Shown here: one piece after another, positions 7,530 to 26,086 of the stretch | Layout of the letters: each line of letters starts with the position of its first letter | Numbering within the stretch: the first letter of the stretch is position 1 | From: Chlamydiota bacterium | GTDB lineage: Bacteria > Chlamydiota > Chlamydiia > Chlamydiales > Rhabdochlamydiaceae | DNA length: 29,378 nucleotides | Direction: 5' to 3' | Assembly (NCBI GenBank): GCA_011065225.1 | Contig: JAAKFC010000001.1 | Span: 1 to 29,378 of the forward strand | Made by a program: the position numbers and the translations under genes | Notes under the pieces: generated by a model | The model's input: the letters and a program-made list of their open reading frames with translations, nothing else | Told to the model about the DNA's origin: nothing | Database searches by the model: none

Positions 7530-10500
7530 ATGGCGATCGAGTTTGCAAGATTAGAATATGTGAGCCGAAGTAATGGAGGGAATAGCTGCCGTAAAGGAGC
7601 CTATAACGGCAGGCAAAGGATATATTGTGAAAAGGAAGGAATTACATTTGATTTTTCTCATGAAGCAGATAGTGGACATCATGAGATCCTGTTACCTGAA
7701 GGAGCCTCGAACAAATTTGCCAAGTCATCAGTTTTGTGGAATGCTGTTGAGTTCCGAGAAACACGGAAAAACTCTCAGCTGGCAAAAGAACTAGTACTAG
7801 CTTTACCGGATGATCCCCAAATCGCTCTGGAGGATAAAGTACATTTAGCCAAAAGCTTTATCCAAAAGCATTTCGTTGGTAAGGGACTTGCAGCTCAAAT
7901 TGATATCCATGAGCCACATAATAAAAAAGATCACAACTGGCATGCGCATGTCCTTATCACAACGCGAAGATTTACTCACAACGGGCTTTCTTTTGGGGAG
8001 AAAGCACGAGATTTAGACGCTTCTGTCCGCAAAGGCAAGGTAATAGAAGCAGAAAGATGGGGAAAGCTATGGAGGACCCATCAAAACGAATATTTTGAAG
8101 ATAAAGGCCTAGATCTTCGTGTAGATCCAACAGGGGTTGTTCCTCAGGAGCATCTTGGTCCAGTTCGGATGAGGGCGCGTGCGTTTGCTTTGTTGAACGA
8201 GCATGTGCAGAGAATAGAAGAGAATGCCTCTCTTTCAGTGCAGCCTGATCAAATCTTGGCAAAATTAACGGAGAAGCAAAGTCTTTTTACAAAATCCGAT
8301 CTGGAAAGCTTTTTGCAAAAGCACGTTGCTACTGAAGATATAGCCGCAACCCGCACTGCTTTTTGGAGCCAAGGGGGTTTACTACAGCTTATTGATCAAA
8401 ATTCTGGTGAACAGCTAGAAAAGTTTACTTCTACTGCTGTTCGGGATGAAGAAAACCGCATTATCAGACTAGCGGACCGAATTCATTATAAGAGGGCGAT
8501 TTCTGTTAGGCAGAAAATACAGGGAAAAGTTCTCGCGTCTTCACAATTAAATGATGAACAATCTGTGGCTTATCGATCGATATTTTCGGGGAAGCGCCTA
8601 AATTGTATAGAAGGTCGAGCTGGAACCGGGAAGAGCCATCTTCTTGGCGCAATTCGTGAAGCATATGAATCAGCAGGTTATCGAGTAAGAGGTTTTGCTC
8701 CTACAAGTGAAGTAGCAAAAGACCTTGAAAAACGAGGATTCTCCAATTCAGAAAATCTCCATCGCTTTCTTTTTGCGCATAAGCATGGATCTCGAAAAAT
8801 GCAAGGAAGAGAAGTATGGATCCTAGACGAGGCGGCAATGGTGGGGAATCGAGCAGTGCAGGAGTTTCTAAGAGAGGGGTGGAAAAATGGCTGCCAGGTG
8901 ATCTTAGTCGGAGATTCTCGGCAACTGCCTTCCATCGAACGTGGGGGAATGTTTGAGGTTTTCTGCCAAAAATATGGAGCAGCGCAATTAGAGCGGATTC
9001 AGCGTCAACAAAAAGAGCCTCAAAGAGAGATGGCATCATTGGCCTCGAAGGGGAGAATGGCTGAAGCTGTCAATCAACTTGAAAAGAATGGGGGATTACA
9101 TTGGAGCCCAACAAAGCAAGAAGCGATGGAAAATCTAGTAAAGAAATGGGACGCAGATCAGCGGGCATTCCCTGGCCATACATCTCTTATCATGGAGCAT
9201 CGCAATCGTTATGCCAAAGTTCTCAATGAGATTATCCATGAGTTGCGATTTTCAAGAGGGGAGTTGGGAAAAGAGGAATTCAAATGCGAAACTTTTTTGG
9301 GGACAGTCTTTGTGAGTGAGGGAGATCGTTTGCAATTTCGGGCGAATGATCGAGAAAGAGGGATTACAAATGGTCAGTTAGGATCACTTGTCAAAGCTTC
9401 CTCAGATGAATTTATCGTTCGGCTTGATCAAGGGAAAGAAATTCACTTTAACCCCCAAGAATTCCATCGATATCAGCTGGGATACGCCGGAACGGTTCAT
9501 CGATCTCAGGGAAAGACGGTTGATCGTGCTTATGCCTTGCATAGCCCTTGGATGAACCAAAATCTATTTTACGTTGCTCTTACAAGGCATCGGAAGCAAT
9601 TTGATTACTTTGTTTCAAAGGAAGAAGCAGCCAATCTTTCAGAGCTAAAATTCCAGGCTTCTCGTGATGGTGGCAAGGAAACAACCCTTTCCTATCAAAC
9701 AGATGTCGATAAAAAAGAGAAAAATGGTCGTTTTTCTGTTGATCAGATGTGGCAGAGAGCCAGAGAAAATTTGGGGGATTTTTTTCATAGGAATCCAGAT
9801 TTTTATAAGGTTAAGGATTCCGAAGAGACATTTCGGGATTCTTTCCAAGTTCTGAAAGTCGACCCTAAGATTACTCAAGAGGAACCGAAGAAGAGCAGTC
9901 CCGCTCCTTATAAGCATCAGAGCCAAAACGATTCTTCACAGACTATGGTCCAAAGATATCTATCACTTGAAGATGAAGTGTGCTTACGTAAGGAGGTCTT
10001 CGATAAAGAGGTTGAAGAGACGGGTAAAGAACTTCGTTCAGGAAAAAGATTTCAAGCGTGGCAAGAGGTTATTCAAGGGAGAAATCAGCTTGCAAAAGAG
10101 ATCAATAAATGCCTTTCTCCTCAGGAGAAAAAGCAACTTTTGACCTCTAAGATGATAGTGAATATCGAGTCGCAAGCAGAGAAATTCTCTCAGAATCAGA
10201 AACGATTAGAAAAGCATCTGAAAACAAGCTCAGATCGAGAGTTGTATGGAAATCTCAATGACAGAGTCGAGGAACTATGTTTACGGCTTTTTCCTGAGGG
10301 GCCTTCTCATCGATCACATAAGGAATGGAGATTTCGATCGAACCGCTCGCTTGCTGTTGTTGTGAGAGGGGAGAGCTCAGGGTCTTATTATGATTTTGCT
10401 GAAGGGGAAGGAGGGGGCCTTCTTCAGCTTATTCAGAAAGAAATGCAGTTAGAAACTAAAGAGGCAATTGCATGGGCAAATGGATTTCTAGAGCAGGCGC

Positions 10501-18760: not shown

Positions 18761-20380
18761 TTAAGACCTTACCAAATGAAAACGGTTCTTAATATATTCG
18801 AGTTGTTTTTGACCTTCCAATTTATCTGTTGCGGGGTTTGTCCTAACATAAAAATCACTTTCTTTTAAAAAACAAGGGTTTTGAGAAGGTTTGCATTCAA
18901 TATGCAATAGATTTTTACCATCGATTAGCAAAATGTTTGAATCTATAAATGGGTAAAATTGTTCGCCAATTTGACTTTTAATTAAATTTTTCCAATGAAG
19001 TAGATAATTATCAGTGTTTTTATTAAATTTTTGCATTTCAGAATCTATACCGATAATAGTTTTTTCGTCACTGACGCCAATTATTAAATGACCTCCATCT
19101 GTATTGAGAAATGCGACTATTGTTTTAAGAGCAGATAGTTCGATATAATCCGCTTTTATTTGTTTTCTTACATCTAGGCTTAACGTTTCTTTGAATTCAG
19201 AAGTTTTAGTTTCTCCTTGATGAATGATTTGTTTGACCCTATCCGAATGAGTTAATTTTCCGACAACTTCAAGCATTTCATTTAATTGAGTTAAAATTGA
19301 CTCTCCGTAGCTTGGGTTTATGCAAAATTCTGAATCAAAAAATTTAATTTGATTATTTAGAGAAGTGAGTTTTTTTGCAATTTGGACTATAAAATTCTGT
19401 ATCTCAAGACTTGGTACAGGAAGAATGAGATTTTGAACTCTCTCCATTTGAAGCCCACAGGGAGGTGTAACTGATTGGAGCACTAATTTTCCCAAAGTAG
19501 AGTTGAAAAAAGTCGAAATATATTTATTTGTTACTATTTCACTATTTAATACTAATTGAATGTAAGAGCAATGGGTAGCCTCGGGCGGAAGCGAAATGAC
19601 TGCATTTGCTGGAAATATAGGGAGATAGATTGCATTTTCTTGATCATCAAAATGATGCCATGCATTAATGGGAAGGCTATTTATAGAAATGGCCAGTTCT
19701 TCGAGCCTATATTGTTTGTAAGTTTTATAATGTGTTTCAATCCACTCAATTTTTTGAGAGGCATTTAACTGTTCAAAGCCGTAAAAACTATTTCGTTCAA
19801 TTAAATTAATGTTGTTTTTGTTGTTATTAGGTAATAAATACGAATAAATTGCATCTCTTGTACTCTTTCCAGTTTTAAGTATGTCAATATATATTTCATT
19901 GGTCTCCTTTCTAGATATATGAGCAAGTACGGGATTTATTATTGGATCTGGGAATTCTCCGGAATCTAGTAAAATCAGATTCAATTCAGTATCGAATAAC
20001 GCATTGGTATAAAAATCATTATTATTCAATAGATTTTCAAATCCGGACATATAATGAAAGTCCAATGAGTTTGACATAAATAGGCAATCACCATTAGAAG
20101 ATAAATAGGGCAGTACCTCTAATAAGGTGAGCCAATGCTTTCTCGCTTTAATTGTTCTTCCACGATCTACATATTCAATAAACCCGATTTCTGTCGGGAT
20201 ATCCAGGAGAATTAGATCGAACGTTTTATGAGAGGGTATCTCTTCGATTTTAGATATACGTTCAGAAGATTCGGTCAAATGAAACAAGCTTGTAATTGAT
20301 TGGTCAATATGTAAAATGCTTTTAGATTCTCTTGCTTCAGCCCATTCTTTAACAAATAATTTTATAACATGTTTATTCAT
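18761..20380 (-). CDS. Fusion of degenerate N6-methylase-like domain, HsdS-like specificity region and Schlafen (AlbA_2) domain
   Basis: C-terminal GETKTSEFKETL...SALKTIVAFLNTDGGHLIIGVSD (AlbA_2). Middle region KYISTFFNSTLGK...NLILPVPSLEIQNFIV (HsdS TRD end/helix). N-terminal FDLILLDIP and LLEVLPYLSSNGDCLF resemble the HsdM DxxxxNPP / LxxLKxGG region. Confidence 0.75.
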   Translation of the reverse strand: MNKHVIKLFVKEWAEARESKSILHIDQSITSLFHLTESSERISKIEEIPSHKTFDLILLDIPTEIGFIEYVDRGRTIKARKHWLTLLEVLPYLSSNGDCLFMSNSLDFHYMSGFENLLNNNDFYTNALFDTELNLILLDSGEFPDPIINPVLAHISRKETNEIYIDILKTGKSTRDAIYSYLLPNNNKNNINLIERNSFYGFEQLNASQKIEWIETHYKTYKQYRLEELAISINSLPINAWHHFDDQENAIYLPIFPANAVISLPPEATHCSYIQLVLNSEIVTNKYISTFFNSTLGKLVLQSVTPPCGLQMERVQNLILPVPSLEIQNFIVQIAKKLTSLNNQIKFFDSEFCINPSYGESILTQLNEMLEVVGKLTHSDRVKQIIHQGETKTSEFKETLSLDVRKQIKADYIELSALKTIVAFLNTDGGHLIIGVSDEKTIIGIDSEMQKFNKNTDNYLLHWKNLIKSQIGEQFYPFIDSNILLIDGKNLLHIECKPSQNPCFLKESDFYVRTNPATDKLEGQKQLEYIKNRFHLVRS

Positions 20381-20475
20381 AATATTTATATCGATTAATT
20401 TTAAGGTAATTGAATGTAATTATCCAATATTGTTATAATTAAAATAAACATAAAAAAATAATTTGGGGTTTATCT

Positions 20476-21258
20476 GTGAAAAAAAGGTTGTTTGATCCAG
20501 ACTCGACTGAGTCTTTTCTTTTAAGTCGCTCTAAAATTGACTTATTTTGTCAATGTCCTAGGTGTTTCTATCTGGATAGAAAACTTGGAGTCTCTCCTCC
20601 AGGATCGGCTCCTTACACTCTCAATAACGCAGTAGATGCCCTCCTCAAAATGGAATTTGATGAGTACAGAGTCAAGGGATCTGTCCACCCATTTACTGAA
20701 AAAATGGGTTTGAATGCCGTCCCTTTTTCCCATCCAAACCTTGAAAATTGGAGAAACAATAGAATTGGAATCCAGTACTTTTGTCCTAAGACCAATTTTC
20801 TTCTTTATGGGGCGATTGATGATGTTTGGCAACTTCCCTCAGGCAAGCTTGTGATTGTCGACTACAAAGCTAAGGCAACGCAAAATGAGATCACTCTTAA
20901 GCCAAAGAGGAAGAAAAATGGCGAGATTGTCAAAACTGATAGGTACCTTATCAGCTATGCAAAGCAAATTGAATTTTACCAGTGGCTATTTCGAATGAAT
21001 GGCTTTGAGGTGTCTAATACCGGGTATTTTGTTTTTGCAAATGCATTGAAAGATCGAGATTCGTTTGATGATCGATTGGATTTTAAAAAGGTGCATATCC
21101 CCTACGAAGGGAATGACTCTTGGGTCGAGCCTACACTTTTTTCCATTTTGGAATGTTTGAAAAGTGAAACTCTGCCAGCGATTTGTGAGGGGTGTGATCA
21201 TTGCACCTACCGCATCGCTTCTCAGGCTTTTGAGAGCACTGCATTGACTATTGGCTAG
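20476..21258 (+). CDS. PD-(D/E)XK nuclease (RecB/AddB/Cas4-like, probable Fe-S cysteines)
   Basis: LSRSKIDLFCQCPRCFY; GAIDD...IVDYKAK; QIEFY; terminal CEGCDHC. Confidence 0.88.
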   Translation: MKKRLFDPDSTESFLLSRSKIDLFCQCPRCFYLDRKLGVSPPGSAPYTLNNAVDALLKMEFDEYRVKGSVHPFTEKMGLNAVPFSHPNLENWRNNRIGIQYFCPKTNFLLYGAIDDVWQLPSGKLVIVDYKAKATQNEITLKPKRKKNGEIVKTDRYLISYAKQIEFYQWLFRMNGFEVSNTGYFVFANALKDRDSFDDRLDFKKVHIPYEGNDSWVEPTLFSILECLKSETLPAICEGCDHCTYRIASQAFESTALTIG

Positions 21259-22600: not shown

Positions 22601-22648
22601 TATCACTAGTTTTTTTGAAAGTTGGTTTTCTTCTTTTATTTAATAAAA

Positions 22649-25600
22649 ATGCATAAAAAAAATGGTTCCTATTTTTATTCTCCTTCAGATTTGATACAGT
22701 TTGTTGAAAGTCCTTTTGCATCATGGATGGATCGATATAGCCTTGATTATCCAGATGTCAGTTCCGTGAAAGATGTACCGGATCCCATGAAAGATTCACT
22801 TCGTCGAAAAGGGATTGCTCATGAAATAAGAATCAAAGAGGGTTTTAAAGAGCAGGGGCTAGATGTTGTTCAGATTCAGGCCGAAGATATTGAGGAAAGT
22901 TACAAAGCTACTTTTTCTGAAATGGAGAAAGGTAGAGATGTGATTCACCAAGCTCGACTTGAAATGGGTGAATTTGCAGGATTTGCTGATTTTCTCGTTA
23001 AAGTTCCTGGAGCAAGTGATCTGGGCGAATATCATTATGAAGTTTGGGATGCAAAACATTCTAAACACCTTAAACCCTCTCATGTTGTACAGCTATGTTG
23101 CTATGCTGAGATGCTGGAAATAGTACAAGGTAGATCCCCTGAGCAGATTGTTGTCGTTTTGGGTACGGGTGAAAAAAAGATTTTGCGAGCTAAGAATTAT
23201 TTCTACTACTACCGAGAGATCAAACAAAACTTTCTTAAGACTCAAAATAATTTCAATCCAAAAAACATGCCTAATCCCGCTGATTCTAAAGGCTGGGGGG
23301 ATTGGTCATCACATGCAAACAATCTGCTAATAGAAAGAGACCACCTACTTCAAATAGCTGGAATTACCCGTAGTCAAATTAAGAAGTTAAATCAAATGGA
23401 TATTTGGACTATGTGGCAATTAATTGAAACAGATGTACAAAATGTTAAATGGATAAATCACTCTATTTTTATGGGTCTAAAAAAACAGGCAACTATCCAA
23501 AAAATTAGCTCTAGCCAAAGTAAGCCCCATTATGAAGTATTGATTCCTTTGGATGATGAAAAGCGTGGATTATCTTTGTTGCCTCCTCATTCATCATTAG
23601 ATGTTTTCTTTGATATTGAAGGATTTCCTTATCACGAAAATGGATTAGAATATTTGTTGGGCTGTGTATATTTCGATGATTTAGGAAATAGGGATTATAA
23701 AGACTTCTGGGCTCATTCTAGAGAGCAGGAACGGGAAGCTTTTCGAGAGTTTATTACTTGGGTTTATGATCGTTGGTTACGAGATCCAAGTATGCACATC
23801 TATCATTATGCTAAATATGAAATTGATGCTTGTCGTAGATTAATGGGTCGTTTTGGTATTTGCGAAAATGAGGTTGATCAATTATTGCGCAATGAAGTGT
23901 TCGTTGATCTTTATAAAGTTGTTAAAGGTGGGGTTGTAATTGGGGAAACACGCTATTCCATTAAAAATGTAGAGCGTCTTTATCGAGGAAAAAGAAGAAC
24001 AGAAGTTGGTAGCGGTAGTGAGTCTGTAGTCTTATATGAGAAGTGGGATAATCTTCATGAGAACTGTAAAGAAGTAGATGCCTGGCGGGCGTCGAAGCTT
24101 CTCAATGACATTCGTGACTACAATATTGATGATTGCGAATCTACCCAAGAGCTTGTCTTATGGTTACGAAAACGTCAAAAGGAGTTTAATATCACTTATC
24201 GAGGAAAAGTAGAGGTGTGTAAGCCGGAAGTTCAAGAGGAAATCACCGAGACCATAAAACTAAGAGATAAATTACTTTTTAGAGCATCTACATCTACCAA
24301 CGCTAGATTTACTGATTTAGAAAATAATCTTGCTGGAATGCTGGAATTTCATCGACGAGAATCCAAACCAGTGTTTTGGCGCATGTATGATAGGCTTGGA
24401 CTTAGTGATGAAGAATTGCTGGATGATGATGATTGTTTAGCTTTTTGTAAGCGTACAAAAAGGGAGGCGTTTAAGCCTTCTGCGCGAGCAAGGAATCTAG
24501 CCTATGAATATAGTTTTGATATTTTGCAAGAATTTAAAGGGGCCACAAAAAAATTTTTTGTTTTGGGTGTAGAAAATACCAATGGCGAGACTGATAGAGT
24601 TACATATGTTTCGGAAATGAGCGATTTAGAAAGTGGCTTGATAGTTGTACAATCCAAACAAGAGCCCAAACCAAATATCTCTTTAGTCCCCTATGAATTT
24701 GTTAGTCCGAAGCCTATTCCTCAAGCACTTTATGAAATTGCGGCTGCTTATGAGTCTGGACAGTTGCAACGCTGTGCCATTATTGACTTTCTTGCGCGCT
24801 CAAAACCAGTTATTAAAGATCACCAAGGCGGTCCAATAGCTGCTAGTAAACATCCAGTTGAGAAGATGGATCAGATACTCAAAGCTATTAGAAATTTAAA
24901 CAATAGTTATTTGACGATTCAAGGACCTCCTGGATCAGGGAAGTCTTATACGGGAAAGTTTATGATTGCCGAACTGGTAAAAGATGGGTTCAAGGTGGGG
25001 ATATCAAGTAATAGTCACAAAGCGATTAACAATCTTCTCCTTTTAACTGCGAAGCACTGCAAAGAAAAAGAAATCGAAGCAACTTTTGCATGTACTAAGG
25101 AAACAGAACCTTCATTAATTGATGAAGGAATCGCTATCATCAAAAATGAAGATTTAGCAGATTCCATTAAGCCTGGATGTGTATTAGGGACCACAGCTTG
25201 GGGCTTTGCTCGTGAAGATATGGTCAATCAATTGGATTATCTTTTCATTGATGAAGCTGGTCAGGTGGGGGTAGCGAACCTGGTTGCAATGAGCCGTTGT
25301 GCAAAAAATTTTATTCTAATGGGTGACCAGATGCAGTTAGGGCAGCCCACTCAAGGAGATCACCCAGCGGATAGTGGTCTTTCGGCTTTGGATTACCTGC
25401 TAAAAAATGCTCCTACCATTTCAGAGGAAATGGGGGTTTTTTTAGGCACTACTTACCGTATGCATAGCGCTATAAATGATTTCATTAGTGAATATATCTA
25501 TGAAGGCAAGCTTACATCACACCCGAATAATGAGCGGCGAATAATAGAGTTACCATCTGGATATGATGGGAAGCTTAACAAGGAAGCTGGCATTATCTAT

Positions 25601-26086
25601 GTTCCCGTTATTCATAAGGGCAATACTCAGGCATCAGATGAGGAAGTAGCTGAAATTGCAAGTCTAACTAAAGAATTGATTGGTCGAATTTTTAGAGGGA
25701 ATGATGGACAAAAGCGAATAGTTGACTGGAACGATATTCTTTTTGTAGCTCCTTACAACTTCCAAGTTCGAAAACTTAAGAAAGCCTTGGGAGAGCAGGC
25801 TAAAGTGGGAAGTATTGATAAATTTCAAGGCCAAGAAGCTCCAATTGTATTTCTTAGCATGTGCTCCAGCGATGCTGGTGAATCACCTAGAGGGTTAAAA
25901 TTTTTGTTAGATAAGCATCGTATTAATGTAGCTATCTCCAGAGCGCAAAGCCTTGTTATTGTGGTGGGTAGCCCAAGTCTTGGCAATGCTGTGGTTGGAA
26001 ATGTCGAGGAATTAGAGTTAGTTAGTTTATTTCAGTCCCTATGCTCTATTGGTTCGGCCAAGCCAACGTTTTCTAATCAGGCTTAG
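22649..26086 (+). CDS. TM0106-family RecB-like nuclease + RNase H-like domain + Upf1/DNA2-like SF1 helicase
   Basis: YSPSDL; GFADFL...EVWDAKHSK...VQLCCY; FFDIEG, YHYAKYE, FVDLY, YSIKNVE, YNIDDC; IQGPPGSGKS, DEAGQ, GDQMQL, TYRMH, SIDKFQGQE, RINVAISRA. ATG 22649 preferred. Confidence 0.93.
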   Translation: MHKKNGSYFYSPSDLIQFVESPFASWMDRYSLDYPDVSSVKDVPDPMKDSLRRKGIAHEIRIKEGFKEQGLDVVQIQAEDIEESYKATFSEMEKGRDVIHQARLEMGEFAGFADFLVKVPGASDLGEYHYEVWDAKHSKHLKPSHVVQLCCYAEMLEIVQGRSPEQIVVVLGTGEKKILRAKNYFYYYREIKQNFLKTQNNFNPKNMPNPADSKGWGDWSSHANNLLIERDHLLQIAGITRSQIKKLNQMDIWTMWQLIETDVQNVKWINHSIFMGLKKQATIQKISSSQSKPHYEVLIPLDDEKRGLSLLPPHSSLDVFFDIEGFPYHENGLEYLLGCVYFDDLGNRDYKDFWAHSREQEREAFREFITWVYDRWLRDPSMHIYHYAKYEIDACRRLMGRFGICENEVDQLLRNEVFVDLYKVVKGGVVIGETRYSIKNVERLYRGKRRTEVGSGSESVVLYEKWDNLHENCKEVDAWRASKLLNDIRDYNIDDCESTQELVLWLRKRQKEFNITYRGKVEVCKPEVQEEITETIKLRDKLLFRASTSTNARFTDLENNLAGMLEFHRRESKPVFWRMYDRLGLSDEELLDDDDCLAFCKRTKREAFKPSARARNLAYEYSFDILQEFKGATKKFFVLGVENTNGETDRVTYVSEMSDLESGLIVVQSKQEPKPNISLVPYEFVSPKPIPQALYEIAAAYESGQLQRCAIIDFLARSKPVIKDHQGGPIAASKHPVEKMDQILKAIRNLNNSYLTIQGPPGSGKSYTGKFMIAELVKDGFKVGISSNSHKAINNLLLLTAKHCKEKEIEATFACTKETEPSLIDEGIAIIKNEDLADSIKPGCVLGTTAWGFAREDMVNQLDYLFIDEAGQVGVANLVAMSRCAKNFILMGDQMQLGQPTQGDHPADSGLSALDYLLKNAPTISEEMGVFLGTTYRMHSAINDFISEYIYEGKLTSHPNNERRIIELPSGYDGKLNKEAGIIYVPVIHKGNTQASDEEVAEIASLTKELIGRIFRGNDGQKRIVDWNDILFVAPYNFQVRKLKKALGEQAKVGSIDKFQGQEAPIVFLSMCSSDAGESPRGLKFLLDKHRINVAISRAQSLVIVVGSPSLGNAVVGNVEELELVSLFQSLCSIGSAKPTFSNQA

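Follow-up and report, generated by a model that had tools for sequence, protein, structure and literature searches.

What does a Schlafen nuclease do when it is joined, in one polypeptide, to the relics of a type I restriction-modification (R-M) enzyme, and why should such a protein be carried by a chlamydia-like bacterium? This question is raised by a fusion gene located in a stretch of 29,378 nucleotides (hereafter the window; contig JAAKFC010000001.1, assembly GCA_011065225.1) from a member of the Rhabdochlamydiaceae, and coordinates are given as positions within this stretch. An initial annotation, made from the sequence alone, had described the gene product as a Schlafen domain fused to a catalytically dead HsdM-like and HsdS-like module and had proposed it as a candidate single-gene defence system. 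In the present analysis, the query protein (P0001) was found to combine a truncated and degenerate HsdM-like domain, a half-HsdS and an intact Schlafen/AlbA_2 nuclease domain. We tentatively read it as a self-contained abortive-infection protein of the prokaryotic Schlafen (pSlfn) class, in which the sensor derives from type I R-M and may serve as a decoy for DNA-mimic anti-restriction proteins.

Domain organization of the fusion protein

The fusion gene consists of a single open reading frame (ORF) of 539 codons, with an ATG start, a stop codon at 18761-18763 and no internal stops. The coordinates of its modules are collected in Table 1. As a single sequence, the protein gave no match to NCBIfam, and Pfam leaves residues 1-190 blank. 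An AlphaFold2 model built on a 99-sequence family alignment reached a mean pLDDT of 89.7, and its best match in the Protein Data Bank (PDB) according to Foldseek was entry 7eew (E 1.6e-10). This was followed by CamA, M.TaqI, BrxX/PglX, M.BseCI and BsaXI, with the single-chain enzymes that combine a methyltransferase (MTase) and a target-recognition domain (TRD) at E values of 1e-7 to 1e-8. Residues 1-348 of the model could be superposed on two such enzymes, M.TaqI and CamA, with a Z score of 13.6 (VIA).

The three modules that the initial annotation had placed within one ORF were recovered by sequence families, by the family profile and by the fold, and the translation places DLILLDIP, ETKTSEFK and GVxD where it had located them. 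The fold check that it had suggested also gave a positive outcome, as the N-terminal and middle regions of the model superpose on MTase and TRD folds in both Foldseek and VIA.

Degeneration of the methylase-like domain

The N-terminal domain retains the fold of a type I modification subunit: residues 2-210 were superposed on the HsdM catalytic domains of EcoKI, EcoR124I, PacII and StySJI with Z scores of 11-13 and root-mean-square deviations of 3.6-3.9 A (VIA). At the sequence level, neither PF02384 nor PF12161 (HsdM_N) produced a Pfam match in P0001. The position of motif IV is occupied by D60-I61-P62-T63 in this protein and by D-[LFI]-P-[LFI] in the family, as opposed to NPPF/Y/W in related fusions with an intact HsdM. 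Across 99 homologues, P62 is invariant and D60 is more than 90% conserved, and the stretch around DLILLDIP follows the consensus [FY]-D-[LF]-[IV]-[LV]-[GA]-D-[LFI]-P-[LFI]-G-[ML].

The correspondence with motif IV was established by profile-profile alignment (hhalign) of the dead family against the intact HsdM fusions, with a probability of 100 and an E value of 8e-57. In this alignment, D-[LI]-P-x falls on N-P-P-F, within the FDxvxsNPPF stretch of the HsdM fusions, and the homology runs from motif IV onward through the C-terminal half of the HsdM catalytic domain, the TRD and the coiled coil. A MAFFT alignment of one intact fusion (P0120) with the family had placed D-L-P on GRFPYG, further downstream in HsdM, and it was dropped in favour of the profile-profile placement on NPPF. 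Upstream of motif IV, the dead family contains only about 50 residues, from which the glycine loop (GxG) is absent; the family consensus in place of motif I is S-x-L-x-I-x-x-S-x-F. In the model of P0001, this segment folds into one helix and two short strands, and the Rossmann helices are absent. Because the homology begins at motif IV, HsdM_N and motifs I-III appear to be missing from the dead family, and binding of S-adenosylmethionine (SAM) and methyl transfer are regarded as lost. The hhalign result and a motif I region devoid of GxG therefore support the dead methylase of the initial annotation, in which DLILLDIP was said to replace NPPF/Y and no GxG was seen. As a separate observation, chain A of 7eew carries Y-D-F-V-I-S-G-V-P-F-G (approximately residues 249-265) and not N-P-P-F opposite the motif IV remnant of the family in the HMMER alignment.

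Half-HsdS module and coiled coil

For the middle region, the single-sequence evidence is weak in Pfam, where Methylase_S matches residues 185-345 below threshold (E 0.078), and the PADLOC model Specificity_I matches residues 232-345 with an E value of 1.1e-5. The 99-sequence family profile, compared with PDB sequences, detected EcoKI HsdS (E 1.2e-9), two other HsdS proteins (about 8e-7) and the type I MTase 7eew of V. vulnificus (E 3.5e-5), the last in both its M and S parts. Residues 209-361 were superposed on the half-HsdS homodimer Esub1 with a Z score of 12.5 (VIA). P0001 carries one TRD and thus corresponds to a half-S. Behind it, two helices of the model (residues 325-352 and 356-373) start at the conserved P323-x4-Q328 and run straight into the nuclease domain; the HsdS profile alignment covers this “LPsleeQ” stretch.

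Several polar or aromatic positions of the TRD are conserved (N249, Y252, H270, N272 and Q275). Within the family, the mean pairwise identity amounts to 0.50 for the TRD, 0.36 for the dead methylase domain and 0.65 for the Schlafen domain, which is the highest of the three. Canonical HsdS proteins encoded in the same loci average 0.20 identity, compared with 0.32 for the TRD and coiled coil of the family members found there. Since the TRD is not hypervariable, its conservation argues for a constant ligand, which it would fit better than a set of diversifying DNA motifs.

Schlafen nuclease domain

The C-terminal domain was assigned with high confidence by Pfam, where SLFN_AlbA_2 (PF04326) matches residues 390-521 with an E value of 7.8e-19 and 68.8 bits, against a curated cut-off of 25.3. 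The E-x4-E-x-K motif, described as catalytic in its E-x4-(E/D)-x-K form in human and bacterial Schlafens (PMC13056530), is intact (E390-TKTS-E395-F-K397), as is GVSD with D438. Of the 99 homologues, all carry E390, E395 and K397 and 98% retain D438; together with the Pfam match, this agrees with the intact Schlafen motifs noted initially. The family profile also detected SLFN12 (E 4.8e-5) and, more weakly, SLFN5, SLFN11 and SLFN14. In the model, residues 376-535 were superposed on the AlbA_2 domains of DIP2311 and of the SAMD9 tRNase domain, with Z scores of 12-13 (VIA).

Distribution of the family and coupling of sensor and effector

A word-indexed search returned approximately 195 homologous proteins, mostly of 540-560 aa, which align end-to-end at 33-45% identity and whose named sources include Chlorobium, Halobacteriota, Electrothrix, Sphaerochaeta and Latescibacterota. 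These sequences belong to a large family, unnamed until now and spread over many phyla, of which P0001 is a divergent representative. In a tree built from the shared cassette, P0001 pairs with P0002, the protein closest to it (45% identity), on a strongly supported divergent branch.

When 1.84 billion cluster representatives were searched with a profile restricted to the sensor (residues 1-378), 477 clusters at 50% identity were recovered with E<=1e-30. According to our own hidden Markov models, the dead domain, the TRD and the Schlafen domain occur together in 117 of the top 143 representatives, whose remaining members are for the most part fragments below 440 aa. Four long exceptions were inspected with Pfam: P0142, P0193 and P0256 contain a divergent Schlafen domain, and P0198 (489 aa), which shows none, is probably truncated. 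No alternative effector on the same sensor was found among the 143 top cluster representatives, and the sensor-Schlafen coupling appears to be fixed, or obligate, across the family. In an all-against-all BLAST of the flanks of 30 family loci, no conserved accessory gene was detected, and only hsdM, hsdS and hsdR recur.

Family members are located on mobile elements and in defence islands, near genes for Mrr, GmrSD, toxin-antitoxin and R-M systems. One such compact defence island is seen in Sphaerochaeta (L006), where the family member lies between an upstream hsdMSR operon and a downstream type IV restriction gene with GmrSD_N and HNH domains (9673-10911).

Link to type I restriction-modification and sister fusions

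Gene neighbourhoods were counted in the 24 family loci whose flanks extend over at least 8 kb. A complete or near-complete type I operon adjoins the fusion gene in 8 of them, and in 6 of these 8 the gene is co-oriented with the operon, either directly after hsdR (L006, L018, L034) or directly before hsdM (L007, L017, L030). L001 contains an N6_Mtase fragment only, and the remaining 15 loci show no type I genes within 8-10 kb. Full-length homologues are overwhelmingly of the dead architecture and two-thirds lack an adjoining R-M operon, rather than being mostly active methylases within R-M operons, the outcome that the initial annotation had said would speak against its proposal.

The same Schlafen clade, with its motif intact, was identified by ORF and Pfam analysis in two sister architectures. 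In the first, represented by P0120, P0240, L022, L031, L033 and L035, proteins of 788-961 aa combine HsdM_N, N6_Mtase, one TRD and the Schlafen domain, and share the TRD and coiled coil with the dead family. Five of them were aligned: they share a motif I of the form Y-D-P-x-x-G-[ST]-[GA]-G, and motif IV is NPPF/Y/W in four and QPPF in P0120, a protein that shares 45% identity with P0001 over 61% of its length. In locus L004, this fusion is placed directly upstream of a second, complete hsdM-hsdS-hsdR set. The second sister architecture consists of an HsdR of 1155-1260 aa with a C-terminal Schlafen domain in which E-x4-E-x-K is intact; it was found as single ORFs within hsdMSR operons at 10 loci, with Pfam confirmation for L062 and L083. 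Its occurrence suggests that covalent attachment of an RNase can arm a restriction subunit. The clade was additionally observed on Cache/PDC-type small-molecule sensor domains, in proteins of about 500 aa (L052:8906-10468, L064:9008-10489, L085:8891-10459).

There is good support for an origin of the family in type I R-M. The tree of the shared cassette has a star-like shape and weak support, and it did not resolve the order of the dead and intact forms. The presence of one Schlafen clade on both HsdR and an intact HsdM-half-HsdS may be taken as comparative support for the decoy idea. The three architectures (HsdR, intact HsdM-S and dead M-S) also form a comparative set for the questions of how an RNase comes under the control of a restriction complex and how a guard is freed from what it guards.

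In the genome studied here, the fusion gene is an orphan. A tblastn search of the window detected no hsdM, hsdS or hsdR, in accordance with the initial remark that neither hsdR nor an intact hsdM lies nearby. Pfam models for N6_Mtase (PF02384) and HSDR_N (PF04313) gave no match in the 1.66 Mb assembly, which is 78.8% complete, so that the missing 21% could hold such genes. The only match to Methylase_S (PF01420) and the only AlbA_2 match in the genome are the fusion gene itself.

Proposed mode of action and competing explanations

Under the favoured reading, the half-S would homodimerise through its helices and form a pseudo-M2S1 clamp that neither binds SAM nor methylates; this prediction is based on the analogy with half-HsdS proteins such as Esub1 and with single-chain M-S enzymes. 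The C-terminal Schlafen RNase, wired to the coiled coil, would be kept latent until a DNA-like ligand fills the DNA cleft of the clamp, and the resulting closure or rearrangement of the coiled coil would switch the RNase on. Cleavage of tRNA or other RNA would then stop translation, and the infected cell would abort the infection. The favoured ligand is an Ocr/ArdA-type DNA-mimic anti-restriction protein of a phage or plasmid, for which the module would act as a decoy. A mimic is preferred because the attachment of this clade to HsdR and HsdM-S recalls the logic of PrrC, an RNase held by a type I enzyme, because in Ronin a methylation-independent HsdMS can act purely as bait, and because there are structures of M-S modules of the same fold in complex with Ocr or ArdA (7eew, EcoR124I, EcoKI and BrxX/PglX, all among the structural neighbours of P0001). 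Furthermore, the half-HsdS Esub1 dimerises through the equivalent helix and is bound by the phage protein Prx (PMC11754733). A co-fold of two sensor copies with the T7 Ocr dimer, run without controls, returned a score of 0.00, which speaks neither for nor against binding.

Several points weigh against the decoy. The data do not separate a DNA mimic from DNA itself as the ligand. AlbA_2 domains also bind DNA, as in the SAMD9 DBD-DNA structure, so that the target may not be RNA. The sensor of P0001 departs from the family at 10 of the 20 positions of the methylase-like domain that are at least 90% conserved, compared with only 7 of 63 such positions in the Schlafen domain, so that this sensor may differ from the others or be under relaxed constraint; since many of the deviations are shared with P0002, it looks like lineage-specific divergence under retention rather than recent decay. 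The host is apparently an intracellular, chlamydia-like bacterium for which no phages or anti-restriction proteins are known. Finally, no type I system was seen in its genome, so a decoy would guard nothing resident, a situation shared by most Ronin-carrying E. coli; Ronin often occurs in genomes that have no type I restriction enzyme (10.1101/2023.04.06.535777).

Among the alternatives, direct sensing of nucleic acid survives best, and we regard it as possible but doubtful. The dead M-S clamp would bind DNA and activate the Schlafen RNase with the same abortive output, and its ligand could be DNA of a fixed sequence, DNA with a modified base that is flipped into the degenerate D-x-P-x pocket, or a form of DNA produced by phage or plasmid entry. 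In favour of this reading, the module shares ancestry with M and S subunits, which bind DNA, and the structures that it matches best are MTase-TRD enzymes in complex with DNA; the conserved D60 and P62 are what a retained base pocket would lead one to expect, the conserved polar and aromatic TRD positions point in the same direction, and the sister fusions with intact HsdM, which share the TRD, presumably bind DNA. However, a fixed motif without a cognate methylase would expose self DNA to recognition in orphan hosts such as the present one, in whose genome no N6_Mtase was found, and a sequence-specific family would be expected to diversify its TRD, which is not the case here. A decoy for DNA mimics is favoured over direct DNA sensing, in both cases with considerable reserve. 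If the DNA-sensing explanation were true, this would be the first case in which a methylase/TRD fold has been recruited solely to sense infection on behalf of a Schlafen effector.

It is improbable that the protein works only as an obligate, PrrC-like accessory docked on a resident HsdM, HsdS or HsdR, and that it is a non-functional or decaying passenger in the present genome. One third of the family loci do lie inside or beside complete hsdMSR operons, the same clade is covalently attached to HsdR and to intact HsdM-S, and P0001 has lost many conserved sensor positions. Yet two-thirds of the loci with adequate flanks show no type I genes within 8-10 kb, HsdM_N, which would contact the type I partners, is missing, the ORF is intact with a perfect catalytic motif, and the deviations common to P0002 point to divergence under retention.

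An equally unlikely explanation is that the M-S relic is a targeting module, which places the AlbA_2 nuclease on DNA, as in a methylase-less, restriction-like DNase, or binds the RNA substrate, so that the nuclease would be constitutive or differently regulated. The order of MTase-like domain, TRD and nuclease resembles that of the type IIG/IIB single-chain enzymes (BpuSI and BsaXI were among the matches), and the DNA binding of AlbA_2 domains in SAMD9 would be in keeping with it. Against this, the characterised Schlafen/AlbA_2 nucleases with the same motif are tRNA or rRNA RNases (PMC13056530, PMC13462974), a DNA-directed nuclease without a protective methylase would be self-toxic, and HsdR already provides the DNase in the sister systems.

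There is likewise little to recommend a role outside defence, in regulatory or housekeeping RNA processing or as an inert relic of a mobile element: 30% of pSlfn genes lie away from known defence genes (PMC13056530) and the defence-family matches of the neighbours are limited to a weak Cas4-like PD-(D/E)XK gene and a partial Mokosh MkoA helicase, but the distribution is sporadic and horizontal, family members elsewhere sit beside Mrr, GmrSD, toxin-antitoxin and R-M genes, and the ORF and catalytic residues are strictly intact.

Returning to the decoy-triggered RNase, an evolutionary series can be envisaged, though we would not lean on it: type I enzymes may have gained a Schlafen suicide back-up and then shed restriction and methylation, giving a one-protein bait comparable to Ronin and PrrC that would answer DNA mimics by tRNA cleavage. 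If the decoy explanation holds, the family would represent a compact, widespread, single-gene way of punishing anti-restriction proteins, and it would join the bacterial Schlafen RNases with decoy or guard immunity built from R-M parts.

Genomic context in the Rhabdochlamydiaceae genome

The window is part of a conjugative element, as indicated by a Ti-type TraA relaxase, TraD and a coupling-protein fragment. The closest relatives of the TraA relaxase (7530-11807, + strand) are plasmid-borne, in Simkania negevensis (43% identity) and Protochlamydia naegleriophila (39%), which points to a chlamydia-like host. For the TrwB/TraD-type coupling protein (26541-27008 and 27045-27173, both on the - strand), only a fragment of 155 aa is open, covering profile positions 68-207 of 387, and the element therefore appears to be partly pseudogenised.

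Because no full-length homologue of the fusion was found in 40 related genomes, the gene is regarded as horizontally acquired cargo, and it marks the conjugative element of this chlamydia-like symbiont as a carrier of such defence cargo. The open frames detected in these relatives (G001-G040; for example L100-L104) are mostly of about 460 aa with weak matches to AlbA_2 only (E 1e-4 to 1e-7), and they are probably a different Schlafen-type protein that is vertically common in the bacterial family.

In the vicinity of the fusion gene, the spacer that separates it from the divergent PD-(D/E)XK gene contains sigma-70-like hexamers on both strands, with a site count in the promoter scan that is not above the shuffled expectation. 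The PD-(D/E)XK gene is not a conserved neighbour in the other family loci. The helicase part of the large protein encoded further downstream of it matches the PADLOC Mokosh MkoA models with an E value of 5e-38, over part of their length only, and with this protein the element may carry a further, separate nuclease-helicase of defence type.

Table 1. Features of the fusion gene and its surroundings (positions in the window), followed by the sister fusions (positions in the locus named).
Feature	Positions	Strand	Basis or remark
Dead-HsdM / half-HsdS / Schlafen fusion gene (P0001)	18761..20380	-	ORF list, translation, full-length homologues
Degenerate truncated HsdM-like domain (gamma N6-adenine MTase fold), residues 1-195	19796..20380	-	hhalign, VIA, motif tally
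DLILLDIP, residues 55-62: strand beta-4 and degenerate motif IV	20195..20218	-	translation, profile alignment
HsdS-type leading helix and single TRD, residues 196-322	19415..19795	-	family profile, PADLOC, VIA
Two long helices matching the HsdS conserved-region coiled coil, residues 323-385	19226..19414	-	model, profile alignment
Schlafen/AlbA_2 nuclease domain, residues 386-539	18764..19225	-	Pfam, conservation, profile, VIA
ETKTSEFK, residues 390-397	19190-19213	-	translation
GVSD, residues 435-438	19067-19078	-	translation
Divergent intergenic spacer, 95 bp, fusion gene to PD-(D/E)XK gene	20381..20475		promoter scan
PD-(D/E)XK gene (PDDEXK_1, weakly Cas4-like)	20476-21258	+	divergent from the fusion gene across 95 bp
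1154-aa protein, RNase_H_2 and SF1 helicase (AAA_11/AAA_12)	22622-26086	+	~2 kb from the fusion gene
First sister architecture (HsdM_N, N6_Mtase, one TRD, Schlafen)	P0120 L004:6349-8739; L022:1823-4708; L031:8633-11002; L033:4456-6984; L035:8687-11053		
Second sister architecture (HsdR with C-terminal Schlafen)	L039, L050, L062, L066, L067, L074, L075, L076, L082, L083		ORFs ~6.9-10.5 kb in each locus

Comparison with known systems

Schlafen nucleases mounted on diverse sensors have been described to protect bacteria from phage by cleaving tRNA in response to a trigger (PMC13056530). A part in type III CRISPR immunity is known as well (Cash, PMC13462974), and Schlafen RNases have been reported as back-up suicidal effectors in BREX loci (PMC12839542). 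P0001 resembles the pSlfn proteins (RorSlfn5, EcoSlfn7; Cash) in joining an AlbA_2 effector with E-x4-(E/D)-x-K to a variable sensor in one chain and in being carried, as a family, on mobile elements and in defence islands; by analogy, its output would be trigger-dependent tRNA cleavage and abortive infection. PF04326 above threshold, the catalytic motif and a fused sensor (residues 1-385), three features of the class, are present. The difference lies in the sensor, which is a dead HsdM remnant with a half-HsdS. The fusions listed in the main text of the pSlfn paper comprise HisKinase, HTH, DUF5929, Ig-like, DUF262 and TBP-like domains (PMC13056530). The dead-M/half-S composition is absent from that main text and may sit uncommented among the 55 supplementary classes (PMC13056530).

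Ronin consists of hsdS and hsdM without hsdR, together with RonA, a toxin of 61 aa; its methyltransferase activity is dispensable, and it has been proposed to bind ArdA, Ocr and Aop1 and to release the suicide effector (10.1101/2023.04.06.535777). P0001 is similar in having an M/S-like module with dead motifs and no hsdR found. In contrast, Ronin has a separate full-length HsdM, an HsdS and a small membrane toxin, whereas in P0001 the M part is truncated and shares one chain with S and with an effector that is an RNase. A RonA-like gene was not detected as a conserved small neighbour across the 30 family loci. PrrC is a latent tRNA-directed RNase guarded by the type I enzyme EcoPrrI (summarised in 10.1101/2023.04.06.535777), and about one third of the family loci, as well as both sister fusion types, are embedded in hsd operons, as is prrC. 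The nuclease of P0001 is nevertheless of the Schlafen/AlbA_2 type, and the NTPase and anticodon nuclease domains of PrrC type were not found with Pfam or NCBIfam. Coupling is covalent in P0001 and relies on non-covalent masking in PrrC, and no resident type I enzyme was found here.

Among the structurally related proteins, 7eew (the HsdM-half-HsdS of Vibrio vulnificus YJ016, solved with Ocr) shares the MTase domain, one TRD and the coiled-coil helices with P0001; it differs in keeping the N-terminal half of HsdM, in binding S-adenosylhomocysteine and in having no nuclease domain. Esub1 (PDB 8vsq; PMC11754733) has neither an MTase nor a nuclease domain. Compared with type I MTases, P0001 possesses the HsdS-type TRD and coiled-coil helices and is without motif I, HsdM_N and NPPF/Y, and no partner hsdR or hsdM was found for it. 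With the single-chain gamma-N6-adenine MTase-TRD enzymes it shares the order of folds, whereas motifs I and IV are absent or degenerate.

The anatomy, the dead methylase and the type I R-M origin put forward by the initial annotation have thus stood. Its description of an undescribed system was overstated, because the sensor-Schlafen class (PMC13056530) and both Ronin and PrrC (10.1101/2023.04.06.535777) had already been published. Literature searches for Schlafen or AlbA_2 together with type I restriction or its HsdS and HsdM subunits found neither a description of the fusion nor an experiment on this architecture. What appears new relative to these known systems is the dead-M/half-S sensor, the fixed dead-M/half-S/Schlafen architecture and the series of fusions that connects type I enzymes with Schlafen nucleases.

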